A stretch of 64,000 nucleotides of DNA from the IMG/VR virus record IMGVR_UViG_3300025117_000002; one strand, 5' to 3'. Shown piece by piece: positions 1,342 through 56,106 of this stretch (positions within the stretch are counted from its first letter, which is position 1; every line of letters begins with the position of its first letter). Under the pieces are notes generated by a model. That model ran no database searches and was not told the DNA's origin. It was given only the letters and a program-made list of their open reading frames with translations. The position numbers and the translations under genes were made by a program. The DNA comes from a virus.

Positions 1342-2119
1342 CTCCAGGCTCCTTTATCTCTTTGTAATCAGCATCTGTAATCTCTATAGTGCTAAGCATC
1401 ACCAAGCTTCTAGCCAGAACAGGATCAAGCTCAAGCACTACAGCTAACTCCTCAGTATCCCCACCTCCTCCACTACCTTTGATATTCTCAGTGGATTGCC
1501 CCAAGATCAACCTAGTTGCTTTTATAATACTAATCTTAGCGTTAACAAGATTATTAATATCCTGAGAACGCATCGGTAATATCTTACCATCTGACCCAGG
1601 CTCTGCTGCTCTAGTCAAATTATGTCTAATAGCAATATTCAGCTTCTCTAAGTCCTCCAAATCTGACTTATGTATCCTTGCCAGAAACTGAGCTAAGTGA
1701 GAAGCTATAGCCGGTCCTACTATCTCTTGTGCCACTCCTACCAGCTCATCATCAGAAGCTTCTTCCTCGGATACATCCCCATCTGTACGTATCTTGTCTA
1801 TTATGTCTTGTTTGAACTGCTCCTGAAAAGCAGATAGTTCCTCTTCCCACTTCTGTTCATGCCTCCAATTAATAACACTTCGCCTGGAAGCTCCTACAGC
1901 CTTGCCTATAGCCTCATCAGAGATATTACCGCCTTTAGACAAATACAAAGCCTTGGCTTTCATCTGCTTCTCAACAGCAAATCGCTTGCAGCTTGCTCCA
2001 GGTGCAAAAGGAGTAAGGTTTTCCTTGCCTCCCTTCTTCTTACGTGCCGTAATCTTCTCTTCAGGCTTAACCAAATTCTTTGCCTTGCGCTCTATATTAG
2101 CAGGATCGTTTTTGGCCAT
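1307..2119 (-). CDS. HTH DNA-binding protein; possible small terminase subunit
   Basis: 270 aa with a basic N-terminus, an HTH-like segment (GNISDEAIGKAVGASRRSVINWRHEQKWEEE) and an acidic C-terminal half. It lies a few genes upstream of terL. The small-terminase role is only a positional guess. Confidence 0.35.
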   Translation of the reverse strand: MAKNDPANIERKAKNLVKPEEKITARKKKGGKENLTPFAPGASCKRFAVEKQMKAKALYLSKGGNISDEAIGKAVGASRRSVINWRHEQKWEEELSAFQEQFKQDIIDKIRTDGDVSEEEASDDELVGVAQEIVGPAIASHLAQFLARIHKSDLEDLEKLNIAIRHNLTRAAEPGSDGKILPMRSQDINNLVNAKISIIKATRLILGQSTENIKGSGGGGDTEELAVVLELDPVLARSLVMLSTIEITDADYKEIKEPGDGDKVPINNEG

Positions 2120-2480
2120 TTCGTTTGGCTCTCCTCTCCTCCTGCTTCAACATCTCCAACATGCAACCTTGTGCATTGAATATAATAGCACAAAGCAATT
2201 CTATTTTAGTTACATGCTCTCCAGAATCTCTATCTACTACTACAGCTCCTCTATGTGCTCTCCACAGATCTATAGTGTGCCGTATCAAAGACTTTACATA
2301 CTCAGCGATAGGCATACCCTTTTGCCAGTTATCTGAGTCTCGTAACTGACCATCAGCTTGTCTGCGATGCTCATGCATGTATGCACCATACTCATGCAGC
2401 ACAGCTGGTGACAGAAACCCCTCGTAATCAAACTTGTTTATGTTACTGTTGCGTGTTGCTCCTGTCTTGAACTGTCTCAT
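2097..2480 (-). CDS. dATP/dGTP diphosphohydrolase-like protein
   Basis: 127 aa. RQFKTGATRNSNINKFDYEGFLSPAVLHEYGAYMHEH...DSDNWQKGMPIAEYVKSLIRHTIDLW resembles, from memory, the N-terminal domain of phage dATP/dGTP pyrophosphohydrolases (F.TGA.R....K.dy....SP......y...H......NW.KG.p). Confidence 0.45.
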   Translation of the reverse strand: MRQFKTGATRNSNINKFDYEGFLSPAVLHEYGAYMHEHRRQADGQLRDSDNWQKGMPIAEYVKSLIRHTIDLWRAHRGAVVVDRDSGEHVTKIELLCAIIFNAQGCMLEMLKQEERRAKRNGQKRSC

Positions 2481-4195: not shown

Positions 4196-5809
4196 TCAAA
4201 GTAATAAGCCATTCAGTTTACTCCTACCAGATCGTTTCTCTATCCAGTACACTGTATTGAACAAAGCAGAAGACTTCAATTCATCGTTGTGTGACACAAC
4301 AAAAACAGTCATCTCTTTGGCTTGATCTTGCAATACCCCAAATACCGCTTCTATATTCTCAGGCTCCAATGCATCACAAGCTTCATCCAAAATAGAGAGG
4401 TTAATAGCAGATCTAAGTCTTTCTCTTGCCAGCTGCTGAATAGCAAACATAAATGACAAGTTAATTATTCTTCGCTCTCCATTGGAACTATCTTTATATG
4501 AGTTACCTCCTTCTGAATTATACACTCTAATAGAGAACTTATCTCTCACATCACCAGATTTGAGAGTTTTATTAGGTAACAATTTAACCGATATTACACC
4601 TTCTGATATTTTATTACAGTAATACTCAAGATGTTTATTCAGTGAAGGTATAATAGCATCGAACAGAGAAGCTTTAATACCTTTAGGCCCAAATCCATCA
4701 GCAAAGAATTCAGCTACTTCAGCTTTGTCCTGATACTCCGCAAGCAATGATCTAGTTTCTACCAAAAGAATCTCAGCTTCCACCTTCTTCTGTCTTGCTC
4801 GTTCAATCATCTTATCATAGGAATTAGTACTTTCCGACAGCTCAACAATTCTCTCCCCTATTTCCTGCTGCTCCCTTTGGTTATAGTCCAAAGTACGTGC
4901 TCTAACTGCTATCGCTTTACGCAGATCTTGAAGTTCCTCTAGTAAATCATCCGTCTCTTCTTGGTAAACGAAAGGTAAACTGCTGCCACAGTATTCACAC
5001 ACGTCCTCGGCTTTTTCTGACTGTAATTTATCTAGTCTACTACGCAATTCGTCTATTTGATTCCTGTCCCTCTCCTGCTCCTTGTTTGCTTGCTTCTCCT
5101 TTATTAGACATTCCTTGAAACTTGCTTTCTCCTGATCGATACTCTGCTGTCGCTTACACTCAAAATCTTTGCAGTCTTCCATGTAAACCTGCATGTCATC
5201 GTTAAGCTCAGCTATCCGTGACTCAGTAAGCTCAATCTCCCTATTATACTGCATAATCTTTTGGGAGAACTCACTTATATCCTTCTTAACTACTTTGAGA
5301 GCTTCAGCGTACACTGTAGAATCAATAAAAGCTTCTATTAGATTCTTCTGTTCAGTGTCATCAAGAGTAACAAACGTTTTGCTTATCCCTTGTGCAAACA
5401 CTACAGAATGAGAGAACAACTTAGCATCCATACCCAACAAGCTATTAATATGCTCTTGGGTACTGTCAGTATCCCAACCACCCAAGTCAACACCATCAGG
5501 CATCTGCTTGAAGTACAGATTATTTTTATGCTCTCCATGCTTTCTGTAGCGTTCTACTACTATCTCACCATATGTTTCCTCTATTACAAGCTTAACGCTA
5601 CAATCCTTACCGGCAAAGGTACTAACTACATCATCACCCTTCTGACCCTTCAAAGTCACACCAAACAGACACCAAGTAAGAGCATCCCATATAGATGACT
5701 TACCGGCACCTACTTTGCCTAACAACAAAACAAGACCACCGGAATTTAAATTAAACTCCAAGTGGTCCCATCTTTGAAAGTTATTCAATTCAAGAGTTTT
5801 GAGTATCAT
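4196..5809 (-). CDS. sbcC: SbcC/Rad50-like recombination ATPase (T4 gp46 class)
   Basis: Walker A is GKVGAGKSSIWDALTWCLFG. There is a long central coiled coil with a CxxC zinc hook (CEYCGS), signature SNGERRIINLSF and Walker B LSILDEACDALE. Confidence 0.85.
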   Translation of the reverse strand: MILKTLELNNFQRWDHLEFNLNSGGLVLLLGKVGAGKSSIWDALTWCLFGVTLKGQKGDDVVSTFAGKDCSVKLVIEETYGEIVVERYRKHGEHKNNLYFKQMPDGVDLGGWDTDSTQEHINSLLGMDAKLFSHSVVFAQGISKTFVTLDDTEQKNLIEAFIDSTVYAEALKVVKKDISEFSQKIMQYNREIELTESRIAELNDDMQVYMEDCKDFECKRQQSIDQEKASFKECLIKEKQANKEQERDRNQIDELRSRLDKLQSEKAEDVCEYCGSSLPFVYQEETDDLLEELQDLRKAIAVRARTLDYNQREQQEIGERIVELSESTNSYDKMIERARQKKVEAEILLVETRSLLAEYQDKAEVAEFFADGFGPKGIKASLFDAIIPSLNKHLEYYCNKISEGVISVKLLPNKTLKSGDVRDKFSIRVYNSEGGNSYKDSSNGERRIINLSFMFAIQQLARERLRSAINLSILDEACDALEPENIEAVFGVLQDQAKEMTVFVVSHNDELKSSALFNTVYWIEKRSGRSKLNGLLL

Positions 5810-10940: not shown

Positions 10941-11120
10941 TTACTCTTCAGCGTGACGTGTTGCAGCTACTTTCTCTCTGACTACTTGTGCAAGTCGTTT
11001 GACTTCCTGCATGTTTTTACGGAGACGAGTACCCGCTACATTGTTACCTCTGGTAAAAAACTTCTCGGCATCCTTTTTCGTTTCAACCAACAGCTTCTCA
11101 AGTGCGACAAATTCATCCAT
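10941..11120 (-). CDS. Hc1-like histone-like DNA-binding protein (59 aa; below the ORF-track cutoff)
   Basis: Hand translation: MDEFVALEKLLVETKKDAEKFFTRGNNVAGTRLRKNMQEVKRLAQVVREKVAATRHAEE. AAGGAG SD 10 nt upstream. The F..(K/R)GN..AG.R.RK...E.K.LA...R core resembles, from memory, chlamydial histone-like Hc1. It has its own terminator. Confidence 0.55.
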   Translation of the reverse strand: MDEFVALEKLLVETKKDAEKFFTRGNNVAGTRLRKNMQEVKRLAQVVREKVAATRHAEE

Positions 11121-12743: not shown

Positions 12744-14102
12744 TTATATGGAAAAATCTTTCAGATCAGCCCAACTTTTGTCACTAAGCTTCAAATCAGC
12801 TGCCAGAGGTACTCCCAAGTCCCAGTATATCAATGGGTTTTGAGGATTAGACATAACAGAAGTAGCCATCTCTGCTATTATATTAACTTCAGACTTATGA
12901 ACACAGAACATAATGGAGTCATGAACTGTAGCAATAATTTTTGACTTAAGCTTGTACTTATTTATTAAATCAATGAGGTTTATAATAGCACAAATTGTAT
13001 ACTGTCCTGCTGTACCTTGAATGGGCATATTCAAAGCTTGTCGTAATGCCTCATACTTTGTAAACTTCTGTGAAGAAGTTACGCCCAACAACCTTCGATA
13101 ATTACCGAACATAGTACTCACATACTTGTGTTCTGTAACAAAATCCTCTACATAATCCAAGAATACCTTAACCCCTGGCATGCTATTAAAATAGTTCTTC
13201 TTAAAGTTCTTAGCCTCCTTCTCAGTCACGCCTAAAGCCTCAGCCAAAGCCTTATCACCTTCACCGTAGATGATTCCAAAGTTAATTGTCTTTGCTGCTT
13301 TTCTCCACTTGCTGTCCTTGTCTACAATGATCCCCGGCTCAGCTATGTCAGCCATCTTCTGACCAGTAGCTAAGTGAATATCCTGACCATTCCTAAAAAT
13401 TTCTAACATTACTTCGTCTTGACAATAAGCCGCCAAGATGCGAAGCTCCATTTGAGAATAGTCTGCCTCCATTAACAGATAGTCACTGTCAAATGGTACA
13501 TACATATTCTTAATGTTAAGCATAGGATCAAAATCAAACCCTATGTCAGCAGCTTTTATGTTCTTTGGAATTTGCTGTAGATTAGGATCAAAGCAAACAA
13601 GACGACCTGTAACTGTTATCGGAAGATAAGTACTATGTATTCTCCCATCTAAACAGATATGCCCATGCACAGGTTTAATAAACATCTTGTACAGTGTGGC
13701 ATACTTCTTATGCTGATTGATAAGAGATACTATCTCATGTACATCCTTAAGCTTTGCAATAGTTTTCTTGCCAGTGCTATATCTCTTACCACTATCTGTC
13801 AGCTCCAACCCTTCTGTTGACAACCCCATCTCAGTAAAGAACAGTTCATGTATCTGATCCCCTGAATTAAGATTAAACTTCTTCTCAAGCTTTTTCTCTA
13901 CTGACAGTACTTCAGGATAACCACGAACTGCATCTTCCAACTGCGCTAGTTTCTTCTCGTAACCCTTCTCCATCATAGACAGAGTAGCTATATCAATCTG
14001 AAACCCTGACTTTTCTATACCTTGTATGGCATAGATAGCCGGAATAAACAGATGGTCATGCACCTCCTGAAAGCTATTCCTTGAAGGGAAAACATCACTC
14101 AT
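12744..14102 (-). CDS. polA: Family-A DNA polymerase, polymerase (thumb/palm/fingers) domain only
   Basis: Motif A DYSQMELRILAAY, motif B RKAAKTINFGIIYG, motif C ATVHDSIMF. It starts exactly where the thumb begins and has no exonuclease domain of its own. Confidence 0.9.
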   Translation of the reverse strand: MSDVFPSRNSFQEVHDHLFIPAIYAIQGIEKSGFQIDIATLSMMEKGYEKKLAQLEDAVRGYPEVLSVEKKLEKKFNLNSGDQIHELFFTEMGLSTEGLELTDSGKRYSTGKKTIAKLKDVHEIVSLINQHKKYATLYKMFIKPVHGHICLDGRIHSTYLPITVTGRLVCFDPNLQQIPKNIKAADIGFDFDPMLNIKNMYVPFDSDYLLMEADYSQMELRILAAYCQDEVMLEIFRNGQDIHLATGQKMADIAEPGIIVDKDSKWRKAAKTINFGIIYGEGDKALAEALGVTEKEAKNFKKNYFNSMPGVKVFLDYVEDFVTEHKYVSTMFGNYRRLLGVTSSQKFTKYEALRQALNMPIQGTAGQYTICAIINLIDLINKYKLKSKIIATVHDSIMFCVHKSEVNIIAEMATSVMSNPQNPLIYWDLGVPLAADLKLSDKSWADLKDFSI

Positions 14103-14635
14103 AACTGTACCTGAATCAACACCTCAAACCAGGAATGTACACGAACAAGACTAGGCTCCTGTACCTGTCTATTCCAAGGACGATCCATAAGAATTCTCTT
14201 CCCTGGAAAATTAATAAGATTCTTGGGATAGTCATCTATCAGCACATCACCACGTACCATATGTTTTTGACCTGTACAGATGACTCTATCTCGTCCTACA
14301 AACGGAACATGTTTATCTATCCATTCAAGCTTCTCAAAATAAGCAAAGCGTGAATCTGTAGGAGATTTTGTAACAAAATAAATATCATGCTTATCCAGAT
14401 ATAGTTGCATGAGTGCATCAACAGACTCTAAGTAAGGCTCACAATTAAGAAACAAACCTTCTACCTTGAGATAGTCGAATATCTTATTACCACACTCTGG
14501 CTTGACACACTTTGACCAATTGAAATCATTTATATCTTCTACAGTAAGACAGTCATTATAGTCTCTGTTATACATCTCAAGCCACGGCTTTTCCAACTGA
14601 GCCACTACACCATCCATGTCACATAGAATAACCAT
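14099..14635 (-). CDS. 5'(3')-deoxyribonucleotidase (HAD / NT5C family)
   Basis: MVILCDMDGVVAQ (DxDxV nucleophile motif), FVTKSP, EKLEWIDKH, GDVLIDDYPKN. ATGA overlap with the polymerase-domain ORF. Confidence 0.75.
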   Translation of the reverse strand: MVILCDMDGVVAQLEKPWLEMYNRDYNDCLTVEDINDFNWSKCVKPECGNKIFDYLKVEGLFLNCEPYLESVDALMQLYLDKHDIYFVTKSPTDSRFAYFEKLEWIDKHVPFVGRDRVICTGQKHMVRGDVLIDDYPKNLINFPGKRILMDRPWNRQVQEPSLVRVHSWFEVLIQVQL

Positions 14636-15072
14636 CAGTTACATCCTTTCCTACAATGATTTTTACGAAAGGTTTCTGTACAATAACAGCGAGACTTCTC
14701 TCTGAGCCTCTGCAACTCTGCTAGCACCTCCTCCCTTGTATTAAACAACTGTACATCTTTATGCCATAGCAGTATATTCTCTCTCCGTCCCAGCACCAAG
14801 ATCGGTATGCCTAAGCCTAAAGCTACTCCAGCCTCAACAAACTTGCCGCCAGCATAATACTCATCATCACTTATAAGCACCATAGCATCTGCTTTCTTAA
14901 CCTCTTCCGTGTCTCTTACAGCTATAGCCTCTCGCTCCTCTTCAGTGTAGTCAGCTGTACGCTTGAATACCTTGTACACCCAGGTAGAAACAATGTCAAA
15001 ACCATTGTTGTCAAGAGTACTTGCCATCATCTGAGCTTTGTCTTGCTTGCATGCTGCAACATATATCTTCAT
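14635..15072 (-). CDS. Nucleoside 2-deoxyribosyltransferase / dNMP N-glycosidase (Rcl)-like protein
   Basis: MKIYVAA start, ADAMVLISDD and GGKFVEAGVALGLGIPILVLG (conserved Glu plus a GxPV-like strand) fit the PF05014-type fold. Start and stop overlap both neighbours. Confidence 0.55.
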   Translation of the reverse strand: MKIYVAACKQDKAQMMASTLDNNGFDIVSTWVYKVFKRTADYTEEEREAIAVRDTEEVKKADAMVLISDDEYYAGGKFVEAGVALGLGIPILVLGRRENILLWHKDVQLFNTREEVLAELQRLREKSRCYCTETFRKNHCRKGCN

Positions 15073-16253
15073 ACTGTTTCCTCTCTATTAGATAATAGTG
15101 GACTAATTTTATGATCGATCCTGATAGATGCATCTGTATCTGCCGCAGCATACGGTATAAGCACCTTCCACGGTATATTCCGATACGAACCGCCACGCTC
15201 AGGATCACAGTCCTTGTGCTGTGCTTTGTACCTTTCCAACCCTTCCCAGTAACTACCCATTTCTGGACAAAACTGCCACACTAAATAGTCAAGAGCATGA
15301 GTACCTGACAATTCATTTAATAAATAAGACTTCATCATGATATCAGAAACTATGTTATTCAACCTGATTCCTTCGGCTATCTCAAACCACATCAAATCGA
15401 ACTTTGCATTCTGTAGTATCTTTCTAATATCAGACTCACATATAAGCTTCATCACTGTTTTAGCGTACTCCAGCATCTTCCCTGTAAATACCATCTCTTT
15501 GTTATAAATAGGGATGACGTATGACTCATACTCCTTGAAAGAAAACTGACAACAAACAATCTGAGCACCTTCCTTGAACGGATTAAGGCAAGAATCCTCT
15601 GTATCGACTGCTACCTCTTCCTGATCGGAGGCATAGTCTAATAGATCATCCAACTTCTTTTTAGTGTCACAGAAGACGTAGTTGACTGGCTGTTCTTCAG
15701 TAGGCATGGTACCTGTAAACTCTTTATAGAGCGTCTCCAGGTCTTTCAGAAAGGGATTCAGATAAGTGTCATCCTTTACGACCACTTCAGGGTTCAATGT
15801 AGGAACTACTGGAATACCCTCATAATCAAAGATTCGACCTCGCTTAGAGGTTATGCCTGTCTCCCCTAATACAGCCTTGAGAGCCACACCACCTAATAAA
15901 AGAATGATCTTTGGTTTGTATACTTCTATCTCTGCTAATAGATAAGGTTTGCAGGTTTTGACTTCTTTATCGGTAGGCTCTCGGTTGAGAGTTTTGTTCC
16001 ACTTCCTTTGTGTTGGCCTACATTTCACGACATAAGTATAAGCTATTTTATTAGCACTAAATCCATTACCCACCAAAGCCAGCCGCAACAGTTCTCCAGC
16101 CTCTCCAACCAGGACACCCCCACACTTATCATCAGATTCATGTGGGCAATCCCCAATCACCAACACATCTGGATTTGGCCTACCTTCTATTCTGATTCTT
16201 GGGGTTTCGCACTGAGTATGAAGAGAACAACTTTCTTCAAATTCACATTGCAT
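15069..16253 (-). CDS. Family-4 UDG-like domain fused to a DnaQ-type 3'-5' exonuclease domain (N-terminal part of the split PolA)
   Basis: UDG4-like: VLVIGDCPHESDDKCGGVLVGEAGELL ... YVVKCRP ... IILLLGGVALKAVLG. Exo I VAVDTEDS, Exo II NAKFDLMWF, Exo III YAAADTDA. It ends 30 aa after Exo III. Confidence 0.85.
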   Translation of the reverse strand: MQCEFEESCSLHTQCETPRIRIEGRPNPDVLVIGDCPHESDDKCGGVLVGEAGELLRLALVGNGFSANKIAYTYVVKCRPTQRKWNKTLNREPTDKEVKTCKPYLLAEIEVYKPKIILLLGGVALKAVLGETGITSKRGRIFDYEGIPVVPTLNPEVVVKDDTYLNPFLKDLETLYKEFTGTMPTEEQPVNYVFCDTKKKLDDLLDYASDQEEVAVDTEDSCLNPFKEGAQIVCCQFSFKEYESYVIPIYNKEMVFTGKMLEYAKTVMKLICESDIRKILQNAKFDLMWFEIAEGIRLNNIVSDIMMKSYLLNELSGTHALDYLVWQFCPEMGSYWEGLERYKAQHKDCDPERGGSYRNIPWKVLIPYAAADTDASIRIDHKISPLLSNREETV

Positions 16254-28843: not shown

Positions 28844-31800
28844 TTACACCTCTGTTATAACAAGAGTGAAGAAATGATATCCATCAGCTGGATTGTTCTG
28901 TTTCAAAATATCTGCATACAACCTGATAGTTTGAGAGTATCCGTTAGAGGGAACTGGTATAGCTACGTTAGCTTCGCTTCTTGCAGTAACTGATGTAGCT
29001 TTGGTTACTCCATTATCCAGTGATAGTTTGAAGTAGTTTGTTATTACAGCATCACCATTATATTTAACAGCTCCTACTGTAACAGTATAGCTGTGAGCAG
29101 AGCCATCTTTGTTATAAATCTTGAAATCAACATAGTTGGAGAAATTTGCACTGTCTGGAATGTTAGGGAAAGCCAACGGATACTCAGACGTATACTCAGC
29201 AGCTTTATCTGCTCTCCACACTTCTATTTTCGGTGATGTATATGTACCAAAAACATGAGCACAGTAAATTGATCCACCATTAGTATTTGATAGTCTAATC
29301 CAAGTAGCCAAAGCATCATTCATACTGAATGTTGTGTAGTTAGGCGTAAGGTAAGTACCGTTATTTATTACAGTAGACCATGTTCCATCTAACCCATCCG
29401 TTGAATCAGTGGAAACTTCTATCTTAATAGATGTGCTACTCTGATTGAACTTTAATTTCATTGTATTGATAGCCACAGTACCAGGCAAATGAATCATCAA
29501 TCCTTTCCCTGTGAAATCTACAGTGTTACCTGAATATTGATCCCCATCCAAAATCTCTTCGTTACCCGCAGTCATCAAGGATTTAACCCCCGATGAGGTT
29601 GTCCACATGTAAGCAGTGCAATCATCTACACTCCACCGAAGTCTATTCTGGCCTACTCCCACAGGATCAGGGCTAGCAGCACCGAACATGTAAGCACCTA
29701 CATCCCAAATAGCCCTTGCTGTGGCCGTAACGTCTTTGGTAAATGACGTAGCACAACTTGTGCCTTTGGCTATATCAGGACTTGTAGTTTGCAGGCCAAG
29801 ATTTAGACTACTCAGGTTAGTACTTATGAAGTTAGGGTTAGCATTGATATCTAATAGAGAATGTATACCATGAGTATCAAATGCCAAAGCTTTCCAAGCA
29901 GCAAGAGTCTGAGATGCTCCTAAATAAGTTAAAGGACTTGGATTATCCGTGTAGAAGTGGTTATAATCTGACACAAAACCAGTTCCTTGACCTGTAGCTA
30001 CGTTTACCGTCTGTCTGATAGGACTTGATACACCTATCATATGAAAAAAGATGTTGTTCTTCACATCCGTTCCTGAACAATTATAAGCTCCAGCTGCTTC
30101 AAGCTTAAGTCCGTCTATCCACCCTTTCCCAGCAGACCCATAGATAGTGTTATTGTAGATACCAATGTTCTGTGGAGCTTGCAGATGAATAGCAGCTGTG
30201 CCTATGCCAGTCTGTTCCAGTCTTCCTATTAGAACGTTACTATGCACTACCCAGTTGGAAGCTGGTTTGTTGGAGTTATTCTGGAGACTGATCCCATAAG
30301 TACAATTGTCTATTATATTACCATGTACCCAACCCCACCAGCCATTATTCAGAGAACCAGCGTCTATCGGGCCTACTCCGTAAGGCACGTTAGTGTTCCA
30401 TGGAGTAGTGAGGTCTTTAACATAATTGTAACGAGTGATACTGTAGCGTAGACCGTACATCCCACTACGACAACCAGGACCAGTAATTATATTATACTCG
30501 TACAAGCAACCTTCACCACCTGGAGGAAGAGCGTTAAACCCTATGTTAGTACAGGTATTTCCAATGCAGATTGTATACATAGACCTGCCTGTATACACAC
30601 TACTCGACTTAATGTTCTCAAAAGTGTTACCGATCAGCTGTAAATATAAAGCATCTCCTACAGTATTTGCTATAGCAGCTGTAGTTACGTTGGTGTCTGT
30701 ATTACAAAGGTTAAACCTCAAGTCTTCAAATTTAATGTGGTTCTTACCATTCAGCTCTATCAGCTTGAGCTTGTCACCAGCTTCTACTGTACCGCTACCG
30801 TTTACATCACCAGTAATAGTGGCATAACCAGTACCCCATGAAGGTATAGATTTGAATGTAATTGGTCTACATATAGTGTAAGAAATAGTAGCTACAGCAT
30901 GCCCTATTCCTACGTAGTTTCTGAGAGTAAGCTGACCATTACTTGAGATTGAACTTATCTGGTGCAGACCTACTGATTCGACATAAGTATTAATCGAACT
31001 GTCAAGACTGTGCCAGATATACACATAGTCAGACGTTCTAACAGCACTTGATACAAAGGTTCCAGAGGTATCAGATAGTACTCCTGTAGAAGTTAAAGTA
31101 CCTGTAGTCCCTGAACAAACAGTAGCCCCTTCGGTTGCCATTGTTATCAGATCAGGACGATAAGTTACACCTTTTTTAAAGGTTACTGAATCCCCAGGTG
31201 TTAAGGTTGTTGAGGCAGCAATTCCTGTAGCAGCAGCATCACCAGGACAATGTTGGAAAGGAGCATCAGTAGTTTTACCTACGTTAGTATCGCTTCCTGA
31301 AACAAAATCTACGTAATAGGCAATTCCTGTAGCCTCATCTCCAGGTTCTTCGGGGTCTTCAGGGGGAGGTGGAGGCTCATCCGGTGGCACATCCACAAGC
31401 CCATACTCATTTGCCCCTATGTCATAAGTAGTGCCGGTAAAAGGATAGCCTCTACCCATATCCTTGCCTACATTGATACAAGGTGAGTTTACTTGCAGTT
31501 TGAAATCCTTGATTGAAGTATCAACATACAAAGGATTTGTGCTTAGCAAGTTATTAGCGATACTTTGGCCACTGGCACTACCAAGATTCCAGTTACTGGA
31601 GTTGTTATAGAAACAGTTATTCTGAATCTCAACACCAGCTAAACCACCTGAGTTATTACATCCTCCAGTACAGTATGTGACTATGTTATTATCAAATTTC
31701 AGGTTCTGTAGACTTGATACAGAATTACTGAAAGCAGGACCACTGTTGTTGAATGTATTATTGAATATAAGAGCTGTAGCTATAGTAACAGAACCATTAT

Positions 31801-34489
31801 TGTTAGTGAATCCAATACAAGGTGAGCCAGTGTGGCCGTCGTAGAAAGTATTATAACAGAAGATCATGTTACTGAAGTATGTAACAGGAGGATACGGACT
31901 CCACACTCTAAGACCAAAGCAGTTGTCATAGTTTGTAGTTGTGCCATAACCATATATCTTGTTTTTGTATACAGTCATCTCAGGTACAGCAAACTCATTC
32001 GCAATCATGTTTATGAGAGTGTTGTGGTGGAAGTAAAAAGCTCTCGTCCCACCCATAAGTTGACCTTTAACCAATGAGATATATCCGTTGTTGAATGTAC
32101 AGCTATACATCTCTGTGTTATTTACAAGATTCCATAGCTCAATGTTAAGCTTTTCATCCCTGCCATCCCAGCCATCGACATAAACAGTACAGTTATAAAA
32201 CTTACAGTTGTTGAGCCAGCCTGGATTGGAGAGCTTCATAGCATAACCGCCTGTACCACGCTCATCAAAAATACAATCCCGAACGATCATATCTTTCAAG
32301 CAGCTCCCACGGAAAGCAGCTGTATACTGAGAGGCATAGTCACAAGCTGTGAAATTGCAGTTATAAAGCTGACAGCCTGTTTGCCATGTAGTAGGAGGAG
32401 AGGTATCACTGACCTCACCACTCCAAGACAAGGCACCTAAAAATTCAAGACAGAAGCCAGTTCCTGAGCCACTGAAGTACTTAAAGTCGCAATCATGTAT
32501 TATAACGTTATCACGTTTCCAGAAACTCCCTACAGCAGCACATGATCTGCTGCTGGCACTAGTGCCACCCATAAACGTGATATTAGAAATATTGTGTCCA
32601 CCACTACCGTAACTGCGACAATTGAAATAGTAAGACCCTCCAACTCTACAATTTATGAAGGTAGAGGATTTTCCTGCACCTCTTACGTTGACACCGAGAG
32701 CAAGATTGCATTGGGCATAATCAGTATACGTTCCAGCAGCTACATTTATAGTGTAACCAGAGGTGGCTACAGAGCATGCTTTGGACAAAGTAGCAAACGG
32801 AGAAGCCAATGTACCTGGATTACTGTCGTTACCTGTGGTCGCTACATAATAGTTGAGAGCACTACCTCCTCCGGTAGAAGCTGTGAATGGGAACACAGTG
32901 TCATCTCCATCAGTAGGAGGAATAGGATTCATCGGTGATATTTCAGGTCCAATAGGTGGCCAATTTAGAGCCGATCCCATCCATGAAGGTTTGGCAGACA
33001 AGTACAAAGAAGCAGGAAGCTCATGTGAGTCAGTTCCATTCCAAATCACAGCGTTCTGTACACAGTTCCAATCACCGTGTCTTAAAAGTGTGTCAAAAAC
33101 GTTAGCACTATTACCAGATGCTCCGTTATCACTGTCATAAACATAACCTGTTCTGTATATACTTCTTCCACCTTCAGGTATGTCCACACCATTATACAGA
33201 ACAGCATTCTCAGAACCTTGTCCGATGATGTTACCTATGGTTGAGTAGTAACGTGAGTTGAACTGAAGCTCTATATCAAAAGCCCCACAGTTACCTGTCT
33301 GAAATCTCCTACTGTCAAGATAGATTCTATTTCTAAGAAGGACGTTATGGCTACCACTACCCCACACGTTGTCTCCAGAGAACCTTGCTTCCATGATATT
33401 ACCTTCAAACAGGTTGTATGCACAGTGTCCACCGTGTACACTCACACCGTTTGCAGCCCACCCTGAAGCACCACCAACTAAATGATGTATCCAGTTATAA
33501 CTGTAAACATTACCCATGACACAGTAAGCCATTGTAAGAGCGGGGGAGACATGATAAATGAGACTATTTTCAAGTAAACAAGAAGCCGCTGGGCCTACCC
33601 ACACTCCATATCCATTAGAGGCTCCAACCTGTTCGTGAAATGAGCAACCTCTAATGGTGGTCCTGAAGTTCCGGCGCATCCGAACCACACATGCATAGGA
33701 GTGTTTGCCCTCTACATTCAGAAGCCAACAATTGGAGGTACCCAAAAAGCCTATTACAGCAGGATCACCTGTTTCATGTTTTACTTTATCGTCTACGTTA
33801 CTTACGGTCATGTCTTCTATACCGGCGTAGATCGTAGGACTATTAAGTTTTATAACTTGTGGCACTCTAGCTGTAGAGAAGTTCCAATGTAAAGGAACGT
33901 CTAATGTAATAGTCGTTCCACTGATAGCAGTAATAGTATTTATCTGACCATTGTATCTATTACCATCTCTAGCGTTCCAAGTAGCTGTACCATTACTACC
34001 TGTATTAGTGACAGGAGGATCACCATTAGCATCCCCGATTTCGTCAAGTAGAAATATATCGCCTACTGACCAACCAGTAGCAGATGCTGTAACTATTTGA
34101 GTCGATCCTTTGGTATAGCCTGATACTACATTGATTCCATTAGCATCCTGCCACATACCATTATCAAATCCCACTATAAAATAAAGATCAGTAGCAGCAC
34201 TACCGGCTCGTAAAATAGTTGAGCCTATACCGTTTCCTCTCAGTGTTTTATTACTTGGAACTTTGATCCTGGCGTTGACATAGAAAGTTCCAGCTGCAAG
34301 CTTTACAACTTGATAAGCTGGACAGTTGGCGAGAGCGTTGGTGATTGCTGCGTAGTCAGAAGCTCCAGTGGTGTCTGTAGAGGGAGATATGGTAGTGTAC
34401 ACAGTAAGTCGTGTAGGTATTCCATTTTTAACTCCAGCGTTTCCGTTCCACGTAGAGTTTCTATTAATAGGAAGAGTATAGACAGCCAT
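28844..34489 (-). CDS. Giant (1881 aa) multi-module right-handed beta-helix tailspike/depolymerase-like protein
   Basis: There are three separate stretches of PbH1-like repeats (for example IRGCSFHEQ, IIHDCDFKYF, IQNNCFYNNSSNW, GNIIDNCTYGISLQNNS, IYNNTIYGS, VKNNIFFH). A Pro/acidic linker VPPDEPPPPPEDPEEPGDE lies at about 31335-31395, and there are beta-sandwich-like C-terminal domains. Confidence 0.7.
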   Translation of the reverse strand: MAVYTLPINRNSTWNGNAGVKNGIPTRLTVYTTISPSTDTTGASDYAAITNALANCPAYQVVKLAAGTFYVNARIKVPSNKTLRGNGIGSTILRAGSAATDLYFIVGFDNGMWQDANGINVVSGYTKGSTQIVTASATGWSVGDIFLLDEIGDANGDPPVTNTGSNGTATWNARDGNRYNGQINTITAISGTTITLDVPLHWNFSTARVPQVIKLNSPTIYAGIEDMTVSNVDDKVKHETGDPAVIGFLGTSNCWLLNVEGKHSYACVVRMRRNFRTTIRGCSFHEQVGASNGYGVWVGPAASCLLENSLIYHVSPALTMAYCVMGNVYSYNWIHHLVGGASGWAANGVSVHGGHCAYNLFEGNIMEARFSGDNVWGSGSHNVLLRNRIYLDSRRFQTGNCGAFDIELQFNSRYYSTIGNIIGQGSENAVLYNGVDIPEGGRSIYRTGYVYDSDNGASGNSANVFDTLLRHGDWNCVQNAVIWNGTDSHELPASLYLSAKPSWMGSALNWPPIGPEISPMNPIPPTDGDDTVFPFTASTGGGSALNYYVATTGNDSNPGTLASPFATLSKACSVATSGYTINVAAGTYTDYAQCNLALGVNVRGAGKSSTFINCRVGGSYYFNCRSYGSGGHNISNITFMGGTSASSRSCAAVGSFWKRDNVIIHDCDFKYFSGSGTGFCLEFLGALSWSGEVSDTSPPTTWQTGCQLYNCNFTACDYASQYTAAFRGSCLKDMIVRDCIFDERGTGGYAMKLSNPGWLNNCKFYNCTVYVDGWDGRDEKLNIELWNLVNNTEMYSCTFNNGYISLVKGQLMGGTRAFYFHHNTLINMIANEFAVPEMTVYKNKIYGYGTTTNYDNCFGLRVWSPYPPVTYFSNMIFCYNTFYDGHTGSPCIGFTNNNGSVTIATALIFNNTFNNSGPAFSNSVSSLQNLKFDNNIVTYCTGGCNNSGGLAGVEIQNNCFYNNSSNWNLGSASGQSIANNLLSTNPLYVDTSIKDFKLQVNSPCINVGKDMGRGYPFTGTTYDIGANEYGLVDVPPDEPPPPPEDPEEPGDEATGIAYYVDFVSGSDTNVGKTTDAPFQHCPGDAAATGIAASTTLTPGDSVTFKKGVTYRPDLITMATEGATVCSGTTGTLTSTGVLSDTSGTFVSSAVRTSDYVYIWHSLDSSINTYVESVGLHQISSISSNGQLTLRNYVGIGHAVATISYTICRPITFKSIPSWGTGYATITGDVNGSGTVEAGDKLKLIELNGKNHIKFEDLRFNLCNTDTNVTTAAIANTVGDALYLQLIGNTFENIKSSSVYTGRSMYTICIGNTCTNIGFNALPPGGEGCLYEYNIITGPGCRSGMYGLRYSITRYNYVKDLTTPWNTNVPYGVGPIDAGSLNNGWWGWVHGNIIDNCTYGISLQNNSNKPASNWVVHSNVLIGRLEQTGIGTAAIHLQAPQNIGIYNNTIYGSAGKGWIDGLKLEAAGAYNCSGTDVKNNIFFHMIGVSSPIRQTVNVATGQGTGFVSDYNHFYTDNPSPLTYLGASQTLAAWKALAFDTHGIHSLLDINANPNFISTNLSSLNLGLQTTSPDIAKGTSCATSFTKDVTATARAIWDVGAYMFGAASPDPVGVGQNRLRWSVDDCTAYMWTTSSGVKSLMTAGNEEILDGDQYSGNTVDFTGKGLMIHLPGTVAINTMKLKFNQSSTSIKIEVSTDSTDGLDGTWSTVINNGTYLTPNYTTFSMNDALATWIRLSNTNGGSIYCAHVFGTYTSPKIEVWRADKAAEYTSEYPLAFPNIPDSANFSNYVDFKIYNKDGSAHSYTVTVGAVKYNGDAVITNYFKLSLDNGVTKATSVTARSEANVAIPVPSNGYSQTIRLYADILKQNNPADGYHFFTLVITEV

Positions 34490-55129: not shown

Positions 55130-55456
55130 TTATACTCTTCCATATAATCTTTCGACGTTATACTGATACTCAGCTGTTCTTGTTCTAAGCCTACCGTCAT
55201 CGAAAGTATACGTGACAGTTAAAGCTTTAGGCTCCAACTCAAGACGATTGTTCCTGAGAGCATTAACGGAAGGAGCTATTTCTATGTTTACAATAGAAGA
55301 AAGAGGAGATATTTCTGTGTCTGCTTGTAAACGTACACCAGAGTTGATATCCGTAATACGGTAAGTGGCAGTAACCGGAGCTACTGCCACACCATTGTTA
55401 TCAAGGAACTCAATCTCTACTGTACACCCTGAATCTTGAGGTACAGTCTGAGCCAT
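55130..55456 (-). CDS. Small beta-rich structural-region protein (108 aa)
   Basis: ORF-track frame. Composition only. Confidence 0.35.
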   Translation of the reverse strand: MAQTVPQDSGCTVEIEFLDNNGVAVAPVTATYRITDINSGVRLQADTEISPLSSIVNIEIAPSVNALRNNRLELEPKALTVTYTFDDGRLRTRTAEYQYNVERLYGRV

Positions 55457-56106
55457 TACGTTACCCTCGCTTCAACCAAATTGGTTCTTCGTGTTCTACC
55501 AGCTAGTTTACCAGCTTCTACCCTTGATCTATTCTTCTTCAGTGATCTGAGCCAGTAACCTATAGTGGCATATTTGATGTTTAACTTCGTACTTACTTCC
55601 TCTTGAGACAAGCCTGATTCATAAAGTCTGACTGCCTCTTTTACATCTTCTCTATCTGATAGAGATTTACATGCATTACCGGGGATCAAATTGGTTTTAA
55701 CACTCGATTCCTTTTTCAATCTCTGTAACTCGCTCCTTACCCAAAGTCTTTTTTCTCTAATGTGAGGCATAACCTCCTGTCGAGGGTGGCCTATTGGAAA
55801 TTGTAGGGCTATTTCTACTTGAGCTTTCTTTACTATTACAAAATCTTTGATAGTGTTCAAAAAATTCAGAGCTGTTTCAGAGTAAATAGCCCAAGTATAA
55901 GAAGCTTTGCCTGCTTTTTCATAATAATGCTTAGGGAAGATGATGTTACCACCAAATCTTTCCCTAAGCATCTCCAGAACAGGTAGAGTGTTTTGCGTGA
56001 CGGTTACGGAGAGTACCATGTATTTGTTCTTCTCAGAGTGACTAACTCCTACATAACCTTCCCCATCAAAGAAACCCGCAAAATAAGCTATTAGAATATC
56101 TTTCAT
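55456..56106 (-). CDS. Free-standing LAGLIDADG homing endonuclease with a C-terminal HTH
   Basis: There is a single LAGLIDADG motif, LIAYFAGFFDGEGYVG, near the N-terminus. C-terminal VSTKLNIKYATIGYWLRSLKKN is HTH-like. Confidence 0.8.
   Translation of the reverse strand: MKDILIAYFAGFFDGEGYVGVSHSEKNKYMVLSVTVTQNTLPVLEMLRERFGGNIIFPKHYYEKAGKASYTWAIYSETALNFLNTIKDFVIVKKAQVEIALQFPIGHPRQEVMPHIREKRLWVRSELQRLKKESSVKTNLIPGNACKSLSDREDVKEAVRLYESGLSQEEVSTKLNIKYATIGYWLRSLKKNRSRVEAGKLAGRTRRTNLVEARVT

Follow-up and report, generated by a model that had tools for sequence, protein, structure and literature searches.

The window analysed here is the 64,000-nucleotide stretch of IMGVR_UViG_3300025117_000002, from an uncultured groundwater phage. 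At positions 12744-16253, on the minus strand, it contains four overlapping genes. The outer two encode the halves of a family A DNA polymerase (PolA) that carries a uracil-DNA glycosylase (UDG)-like domain. The inner two encode a protein of the nucleoside 2-deoxyribosyltransferase (NDT) superfamily and an NT5C-family deoxyribonucleotidase. The genes, the two domains of the first gene, and the overlaps are given below in the direction of transcription, with lengths in amino acids (aa).

15069-16253, minus strand: UDG-exo gene (polymerase subunit 1, 394 aa), Pfam UDG and DNA_pol_A_exo1
15738-16187, minus strand: UDG-like domain, aa 23-172, Pfam UDG E=1.7e-20
15093-15680, minus strand: 3'-5' exonuclease domain, aa 192-387, PF01612 E=1e-20, profile positions 1-172 of 173
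15069-15072, minus strand: ATGA stop/start overlap from UDG-exo to NDT-like gene, seen in the sequence
14635-15072, minus strand: NDT/DNPH1(Rcl)/CMP-N-glycosidase-superfamily gene (NDT-like, 145 aa), Pfam PF05014
14633-14637, minus strand: TGATG stop/start overlap from NDT-like to NT5C gene, seen in the sequence
14099-14635, minus strand: NT5C-family HAD 5'(3')-deoxyribonucleotidase gene (178 aa), Pfam PF06941
14099-14102, minus strand: ATGA stop/start overlap from NT5C to Pol gene, seen in the sequence
12744-14102, minus strand: Pol gene (polymerase subunit 2, 452 aa; thumb, palm and fingers), Pfam PF00476

The initial annotation of the window had described four open reading frames (ORFs) joined by three short overlaps. 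The ORFs and their coordinates are confirmed, the ATGA, TGATG and ATGA overlaps can be read directly from the sequence, and the four domain assignments are borne out by Pfam profile search. The pol gene begins 967 nucleotides downstream of the UDG-exo stop codon, with two genes between. No promoter-like site was found on the minus strand inside the locus, and its one terminator-like hairpin is below chance expectation. Neither direct or inverted repeats bounding the insert nor a GC anomaly at the insert was found. An intein or intron as the insert was rejected; it is composed of two ordinary, separately translated genes. Five other contigs of the same genome are 100% identical over the locus, so population polymorphism is uninformative, and divergence from a relative (L001) was used instead.

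The ORFs at 15069-16253 and 12744-14102 are colinear halves of one SPO1-like UDG-PolA. The first contains Exo I (VDTED, residues 216-220, with D217 and E219), Exo II (NAKFD, 282-286, with N282 and D286), and Exo III (YAAAD, 368-372, with Y368 and D372). The initial annotation was right about the three motifs and misplaced the end of the ORF at 30 aa after Exo III; it ends 22 aa after the Exo III Asp. The exonuclease domain aligns to Klenow chain residues 30-144. The second ORF matches PF00476 (DNA_pol_A) with E=4.7e-91 and 306 bits (cut-off 34.3). As had been described, it begins at the polymerase domain and contains motif A (DYSQMELR, residues 214-221), motif B (RKAAKTINFGIIYG, residues 267-280), and motif C (VHDS, residues 393-396). 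It aligns to Taq 442-823 and to Klenow chain 202-584, and its start falls at approximately residue 202 of the Klenow-fragment chain, where the polymerase domain starts.

Homologues of the UDG-exo half were collected by an exhaustive HMMER search of 1.84 billion representatives, and the best 150 were analysed. The pol half is contiguous in the same chain in 132 of these 150 and starts where the alignment of the exo half ends, which refutes an origin of the halves from unrelated polymerases. The proposed break at the exo/pol boundary was also checked against intact UDG-PolAs, onto which the halves map contiguously; in P0143 the exo half covers residues 1-378 and the pol half 377-826. The two halves are likewise neighbours on the phrog_17 profile (478-829 and 840-1235). 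The five top homologues of the UDG-exo half are 390-397 aa long. The next are fused proteins of approximately 800-1370 aa, with a score drop from 242 to 179 bits between the split-size and fused homologues, and hundreds of fused UDG-PolAs match the half colinearly. The locus therefore has the domain order of a UDG-PolA (UDG, exo, pol) without being a single polypeptide. A single ancestral gene fission at the exo/pol domain boundary gave the two subunits.

The pol half has 14 clade relatives in the protein database with 47-79% identity, all pol-only except one with an internal insertion. The locus was compared in the window and in seven relative contexts, where L001-L003 represent one relative (79% identity) and L004-L009 represent six more distant ones. 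The split is kept in the loci of all six more distant relatives. The contents of the junction between the halves are as follows.

L001-L003 (79% identity): the same NDT-like and NT5C pair as the window
L004, L005, L006, L007: short ORFs (74-141 aa) with no relation to NDT or NT5C
L008: nothing; ATGA stop/start overlap
L009: nothing; 23-nucleotide overlap

Among the loci compared, the NDT-like and NT5C pair is at the junction only in the window genome and its 79% relative. The start point of the pol half is common to the aligned loci (N-terminus MSDV(F/L)PS(R/K)N or the variant RADVFPSKN). Given this common start and the varied junction, the simplest history is one fission followed by repeated insertions at a tolerant junction. 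The fission was already present in the ancestor of a small metagenomic myovirus clade; the insert was not. The restriction of the pair to the window and its 79% relative marks the junction as a permissive insertion site rather than part of a conserved four-gene machine. The initial annotation had placed nucleotide chemistry inside the replicase gene as a designed unit. This was an over-reading; the fission predates the insertion and the junction content varies.

Two features of the relatives' loci were recorded separately. A family of small Cys-containing ORFs is present between the halves in L004 (3275-3538), L005 (5737-5988), and L007 (2862-2957), and its two full-length members end in DDIPF. 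The pol gene of L004 (P0004, 766 aa) has an insertion of approximately 308 aa inside motif B (…KT|INFG) at about 4372-5293. This insertion ends in …GQ|C and holds a LAGLIDADG-like segment, and by its sequence is probably an intein with a homing endonuclease.

The UDG-like domain has as its best solved match the Thermus thermophilus family-4 UDG 1ui0 (E=5e-22), and its TIGR00758 score of 100.8 bits is under the cut-off of 125.3. Motif A is GDCPH, with D35 in place of the Glu of the canonical GE[A/G]PG and with Pro37 kept. Motif B is LNPE (TLNPE, N154), with Asn in place of the His of the canonical HP. The substitution of GDCPH for GEAPG, with VGEAG and VKCRP retained, had been noted initially, and the three motifs are located at residues 34-38, 49-53, and 76-80. 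All eight clade members keep C3, C9, C78 (VKCRP), and C101 (KTCKP), at positions we take to be the [4Fe-4S] ligands of family-4 UDGs. Of the features of an active family-4 UDG, the domain thus has the four cysteines and lacks the canonical motif A, the motif B His, and a TIGR00758 score above cut-off. Residual UDG activity may persist, as Pro37 is kept and the change from Glu to Asp is conservative. The UDG-exo half also matches PDB 9qhs, which presumably comes from bioRxiv 10.1101/2025.03.26.645540. Cryo-EM structures have been reported for SP15-like UDG-PolAs, in which the UDG domain cuts out deoxyuridine (dU) ahead of the fork and for which the catalytic residues of the phiLo UDG are E53, P55, and H178 (bioRxiv 10.1101/2025.03.26.645540).

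Within the clade the UDG motifs range from canonical in L009 (GEAPG / FHPA) to strongly degenerate in L004 (GDMPG / VSPA). A crude pattern search found GExPG in 97 of the 150 representative homologues. In the clade alignment this variation is unrelated to the presence of the base-modification cassette described below, since L004-L006 have the cassette and have lost the His, and L001 lacks the cassette and keeps the His. With motifs that run from canonical to degenerate independently of the cassette, and a domain that is nevertheless kept, the constraint on glycosylase chemistry seems relaxed in the split clade. The retained domain would fit a structural or template-guiding role, as proposed for N4-like enzymes (PMC10201439).

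The NDT-like protein matches PF05014 (Nuc_deoxyrib_tr) with E=1.3e-7 and 32.1 bits (cut-off 28.8). Its predicted nucleophile is E80, in GGKFVEAG. This residue aligns with the conserved NDT-motif Glu of 7m5h, which we take to be the nucleophile of that enzyme. Across eight homologues, Y4 and E80 are invariant, and D54 is present in seven (Asn in P0127). An AF2 model, built on an alignment without the L001 row, has a pLDDT of 84. The top Foldseek matches of the model are NDTs, DNPH1, and BcmB, with probability 1.00 and TM scores of 0.55-0.70; NDT, DNPH1, and CMP N-glycosidase structures match about equally, and identity to the solved superfamily members is only 14-21%. The subfamily is small. 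A word-indexed search of 5.8 billion proteins returned 7 homologues, and none was found in 50,697 phage records.

Two further observations concern this protein family. The NDT-like protein ends in a Cys-rich tail, CYCTETFRKNHCRKGC (aa 129-144, window 14638-14688, minus strand, pLDDT <50), which may be a zinc knuckle. P0122 has a comparable Cys-containing tail, which the other homologues, that of L001 among them, lack. Among a series of small phage-like ORFs in L019 (2458-3182), the homologue P0124 comes immediately after another NDT-superfamily gene (DUF4406/DUF7768), and the two look like tandem paralogues.

The NT5C protein matches PF06941 with E=6.7e-46 and 156.9 bits (cut-off 24.8) over profile positions 2-170 of 180. 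Its HAD motif residues are D6 and D8 (in DMDGV, residues 6-10, the motif recognised in the initial annotation), T89, K124, and D134/D135. Alignment to the human mitochondrial deoxyribonucleotidase mdN (1mh9) and to 3bwv shows these motifs to be conserved. Both inserted enzymes have intact catalytic residues on alignment, as the initial annotation had presumed. Between the window and L001, the NDT-like gene has a nonsynonymous divergence (pN) of 0.37 and a synonymous divergence (pS) of 0.75, with 49% aa identity. The NT5C gene has a pN of 0.23 and a pS of 0.70, with 64% aa identity. Synonymous sites are saturated in this comparison. Both inserted genes are under purifying selection.

Upstream of the polymerase, the more distant relatives have genes that the window lacks. 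A YfbR-like HD phosphohydrolase (PF12917) lies just upstream of UDG-exo in all of L004-L009. It is preceded by a thymidylate synthase (TS) homologue that resembles dUMP hydroxymethylases and has a weak Pfam match in L004; none was seen in L007, where the contig ends nearby. A 5-hydroxymethyldeoxyuridine DNA kinase (HMUDK) is present in L005, L006, L008, and L009, ADDT is present in L006 and L009, and some relatives also have radical-SAM, GATase, or acetyltransferase genes near the polymerase. Thymidine-hypermodification genes are known to sit by the hydroxymethylase and phage polymerase (PMC5889632), and in 5-hydroxymethyluracil (hmU) pathways the phage lowers thymidine nucleotide levels with a dTMPase and a dTTPase (PMC8989533). 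The upstream gene layout of the relatives is the published thymidine-hypermodification layout.

At the syntenic position, the window and L001 contain genes for a Lys-rich protein, DUF932, and helicase/primase, together with two unannotated ORFs (229 and 74 aa). Cassette genes were sought with tblastn, Pfam, and precomputed annotations in 80.6 kb (78%) of the genome of approximately 102.8 kb, made up of the 64-kb window and 16.6 kb of flanks (8.7 and 7.9 kb). The window and flanks contain no TS homologue, HMUDK, ADDT, or YfbR-type HD gene by tblastn and Pfam. Pfam scans found no dCTP/dCMP deaminase in the window and detected no deoxynucleoside monophosphate (dNMP) kinase or deoxynucleoside kinase. 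Of the components of a dU-DNA system (Dcd with Dtm/Dtt), only a candidate phosphohydrolase was found in the window, and the window and flanks gave no component of a hypermodification system. The initial annotation had suggested a non-canonical base. This fits the relatives, but the modification genes are absent from the part of the present genome that was covered, so unusual bases in this phage are not supported by anything in 78% of its genome.

The NDT-like and NT5C cassette is probably a dNMP-clearing module that replaces a YfbR-type enzyme and is co-expressed with a two-subunit replicase. The two-gene cassette entered the permissive junction in this lineage and is translationally coupled to both halves. 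Being coupled to both, it should be produced together with the replicase, whose UDG-exo and pol subunits would reassociate as in the S-SBP1 precedent. NT5C would first strip the 5'-phosphate from a dNMP, and the NDT-like enzyme would then break or transfer the N-glycosidic bond. With this bond broken or transferred, host kinases could not re-phosphorylate the nucleoside and the clearing would be irreversible. As an alternative step, the NDT-like enzyme may cleave the dNMP directly.

The YfbR-type and NT5C-type nucleotidases have a complementary distribution beside the same polymerase. The cassette thus looks like it fills the niche of the YfbR-type HD 5'-deoxynucleotidase by non-orthologous displacement. 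The complementarity mirrors the finding that both families supply phage dTMP phosphatases, as shown experimentally for PBS1 Dtm (PF06941) and DSS3_VP1 Dtm (PF12917) (PMC12697855). By analogy with characterised NT5C-family enzymes, pyrimidine dNMPs (dTMP/dUMP) are the most probable substrates. The clearing may serve base replacement, anti-defence, or pool hygiene. Base replacement is weighted low because no supplying enzyme was found in 78% of the genome and because NT5C homologues are common in cultured phages presumed to have canonical DNA.

Several points weigh against this explanation. A YfbR-type or base-modification gene could lie in the remaining approximately 22 kb of the genome. The displacement is drawn from only seven or so lineages, and the reassociation of the subunits from one AlphaFold precedent, that of S-SBP1. 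A phage that does not replace thymidine would be harmed by a dTMPase, which makes a broader or different specificity quite plausible. Instead of a hydrolase, the NDT-like protein may be a genuine transferase acting in salvage; the fold search does not distinguish the two. In L019, the sole informative context, the Pfam annotation shows no NT5C gene beside the homologue P0124, which speaks against reading the pair as an established conserved unit.

Three other explanations were weighed against the dNMP-clearing module. In the first, NT5C is a Dtm-type dTMP phosphatase, the NDT-like protein destroys thymidine, and thymidine is replaced by dU or hmU, with the hmU genes in the remaining 22 kb and the UDG domain disabled to tolerate the substitute base. 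PBS1 Dtm, in the same Pfam family, does prefer dTMP (PMC12697855), dTMPase and dTTPase are classical in hmU pathways (PMC8989533), and UDG-PolAs are typical of thymidine-modified phages (PMC10201439; bioRxiv 10.1101/2025.03.26.645540). The hypermodification cassette adjoins the same polymerase in the relatives, and the window UDG has GDCPH as motif A and Asn for His in motif B. The loss of UDG motifs does not follow the absence of the cassette, however (L004-L006 versus L001), and no TS homologue, HMUDK, ADDT, dCTP/dCMP deaminase, or dNMP kinase was found in the 80.6 of approximately 102.8 kb covered. PBS1 Dtm is also absent among the tblastn matches listed for the window NT5C. Homologues that are listed show NT5C to be common in cultured phages, including SPbeta (YorS), KVP40-like, and GAP32-like phages, all of which we take to carry canonical DNA. 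Replacement of thymidine is therefore considered unlikely. A version in which the lineage exchanged the hmU or hypermodification of its relatives for another thymidine-free genome, such as dU-DNA, with NT5C and the NDT-like protein irreversibly destroying dTMP and thymidine and being co-translated with a two-subunit replicase whose UDG domain is disabled, is very unlikely.

In the second, a possibility that the initial annotation had also raised, the pair removes dNMPs derived from degraded host DNA so that dNMP-sensing or dNMP-converting defence systems stay untriggered. The coupling of the pair to the replicase suggests the timing of a middle gene, unlike T5 Dmp, whose timing we take to be pre-early. 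Kongming converts dAMP to dITP. Escape from it requires, in T5, the 5'-dNMP phosphatase Dmp, which removes dAMP, and other phage Dmps behave alike (bioRxiv 10.1101/2024.12.20.629578). The trigger of Kongming is phage dNMP kinases, none of which was detected here, and no T5 record is among the tblastn matches listed for NT5C. A defence system triggered by m6-dAMP has been reported. Like typical accessory or anti-defence genes, the insert is confined to its lineage and evolves fast (49% identity for the NDT-like protein versus 79% for Pol), and the S-AdoMet lyase encoded outside the window is a sign of investment in anti-defence. A counter-defence role is judged unlikely.

In the third, NT5C yields deoxynucleosides, a true NDT swaps their bases, and host kinases rebuild dNTPs; such salvage or pool rebalancing agrees with the bona fide NDTs among the top structural matches (7o62, TM 0.70; 6evs; 7m5h), the Pfam match to a transferase family, and the conserved Tyr/Asp/Glu triad, but it is most unlikely, as removing and then restoring the phosphate on dNMPs wastes energy, no deoxynucleoside kinase was seen in the phage by Pfam scans, and DNPH1 and the CMP glycosidases match about as well as NDTs.

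The locus shares features with several known systems. SPO1-like and SP15-like UDG-PolAs have the same domain order, and SPO1-like phages provide the best cultured matches of the pol half, at approximately 33% identity. Thymidine-modification genes adjoin the polymerase in the UDG-PolA group and in the relatives of the window (PMC10201439, PMC5889632). Compared with the SPO1-like enzymes, the window polypeptide is split over two genes, its UDG motifs are degenerate (and variable across the clade), and the 80.6 kb covered contains no modification cassette.

Fission between exo and pol was reported in S-SBP1-like T7-like cyanophages (Czernecki et al. 2023, PMC10201439). In LUZ24-like phages, "DNA polymerase part I" (the exonuclease) and "part II" have approximately 10 small ORFs between them (PMC3890496). 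In both, as here, the exo and pol domains are in separate genes that are split at the domain boundary, and the LUZ24-like halves are parted by intervening ORFs, as in the window. The new stop and start codons of the S-SBP1 fission are a few bases apart, which is similar to the overlapping halves of L008 and L009. The present polymerase differs in belonging to neither T7-like cluster 5 nor the LUZ24-like lineage of PolA, and in that the UDG domain travels with the exonuclease half. Its intervening genes are recognisable nucleotide-catabolic enzymes and not small hypothetical ORFs. The closest cultured matches listed are SPO1-like Herelleviridae and the closest metagenomic ones are fused UDG-PolAs, which points to an independent fission.

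Among nucleotide-catabolic enzymes, the window NT5C is in the same family as PBS1 Dtm, with all HAD catalytic residues, and the nucleotidase of the relatives is in the same family as DSS3_VP1 Dtm (PF12917, YfbR-like HD). These Dtm-family members sit beside the replicase in both the window and the relatives. Unlike the Dtm phages, the window has no deaminase or hydroxymethylase partner that was found, and there is no tblastn link to either Dtm among the matches listed; PBS1 and DSS3_VP1 Dtm are likewise absent from the tblastn matches of the HD protein of one relative. DNPH1/Rcl, the NDTs, and the MilB/BcmB CMP N-glycosidases have the same fold and Tyr/Asp/Glu pattern as the NDT-like protein. 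In contrast to solved PF05014 members, the NDT-like protein has the additional Cys-rich C-terminal tail and belongs to a small, distinct subfamily. T5 Dmp, like the predicted activity of NT5C, is a phage enzyme that turns dNMPs into deoxynucleosides. T5 pairs Dmp with a phage dNMP kinase, which was not seen here, and NT5C differs in sitting inside the replicase operon.

Fusions of UDG with PolA (PMC10201439) and exo/pol gene fission (PMC10201439, PMC3890496) were already known. New here are a fission that seems to have arisen independently among UDG-PolAs and has UDG attached to the exonuclease subunit, the presence of nucleotide-catabolic enzymes at the junction, the partnering of a rare, uncharacterised NDT/DNPH1-like subfamily with NT5C, and the apparent swap between YfbR-type and NT5C-type nucleotidases. 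Family A exo/pol fission has thus happened more than once, in this case in a three-domain UDG-PolA, and the locus is a natural two-subunit system in which cooperation between the UDG, proofreading, and polymerase modules can be studied. The split junction behaves as an insertion hot spot, where genes that land gain replicase-coupled expression. The NDT/DNPH1-like partner could define a new two-step route of deoxynucleotide removal. Current understanding is not overturned, and the claim of a modified genome is unsupported for this phage.

The genome is represented by over 20 contigs (96.5-102.8 kb) in metagenomes from groundwater and related sources. The minus strand carries almost all genes of the window. 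Pfam matches in the window include a tail sheath and baseplate J, so the phage is a myovirus. No DNA-level similarity to the 50,697 phage records was found, and a back-translated search of a viral contig collection with the pol half returned no relatives. No tRNAs and no Rfam families at the gathering threshold were found in the window.

Other genes in the window and the relatives' contigs are minor observations. A 127-aa ORF at 2097-2480 (minus strand) matches PF18909 (dATP/dGTP diphosphohydrolase N-terminal domain) weakly and below threshold (E=0.0017) and has no NCBIfam match. Should the PF18909 match be real, a dNTP pyrophosphohydrolase step would precede those of the NT5C and NDT-like pair. 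A 59-aa Hc1-type (chlamydial histone H1-like) protein is encoded at 10941-11120 (minus strand, Pfam E=3e-14). The Hc1-type gene is at the same position in L001-L005 and L007, and L008 has an HU-type gene (Bac_DNA_binding) instead; the protein may hint at the host or may belong to a phage nucleoid. A free-standing LAGLIDADG homing-endonuclease ORF (PF00961 E=9e-5, PF14528) lies among structural genes at 55456-56106 (minus strand), and an 1881-aa ORF extends from 28844 to 34489 (minus strand). Past the window end, L017 (1-3805) contains the S-AdoMet lyase (an anti-restriction SAMase), a portal, an SU10-like major capsid protein, and a 1923-aa DUF7178 protein. L002 (ENA ERZ28563683, ANAN16-1 scaffold_31) is 206,207 bp long, and a longest contig of the same length is listed for P0121, which is identical to the window NDT-like protein, and for P0001, the 79%-identical pol. 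This scaffold may join two related genomes of approximately 103 kb, through chimerism or through co-assembly of strains.

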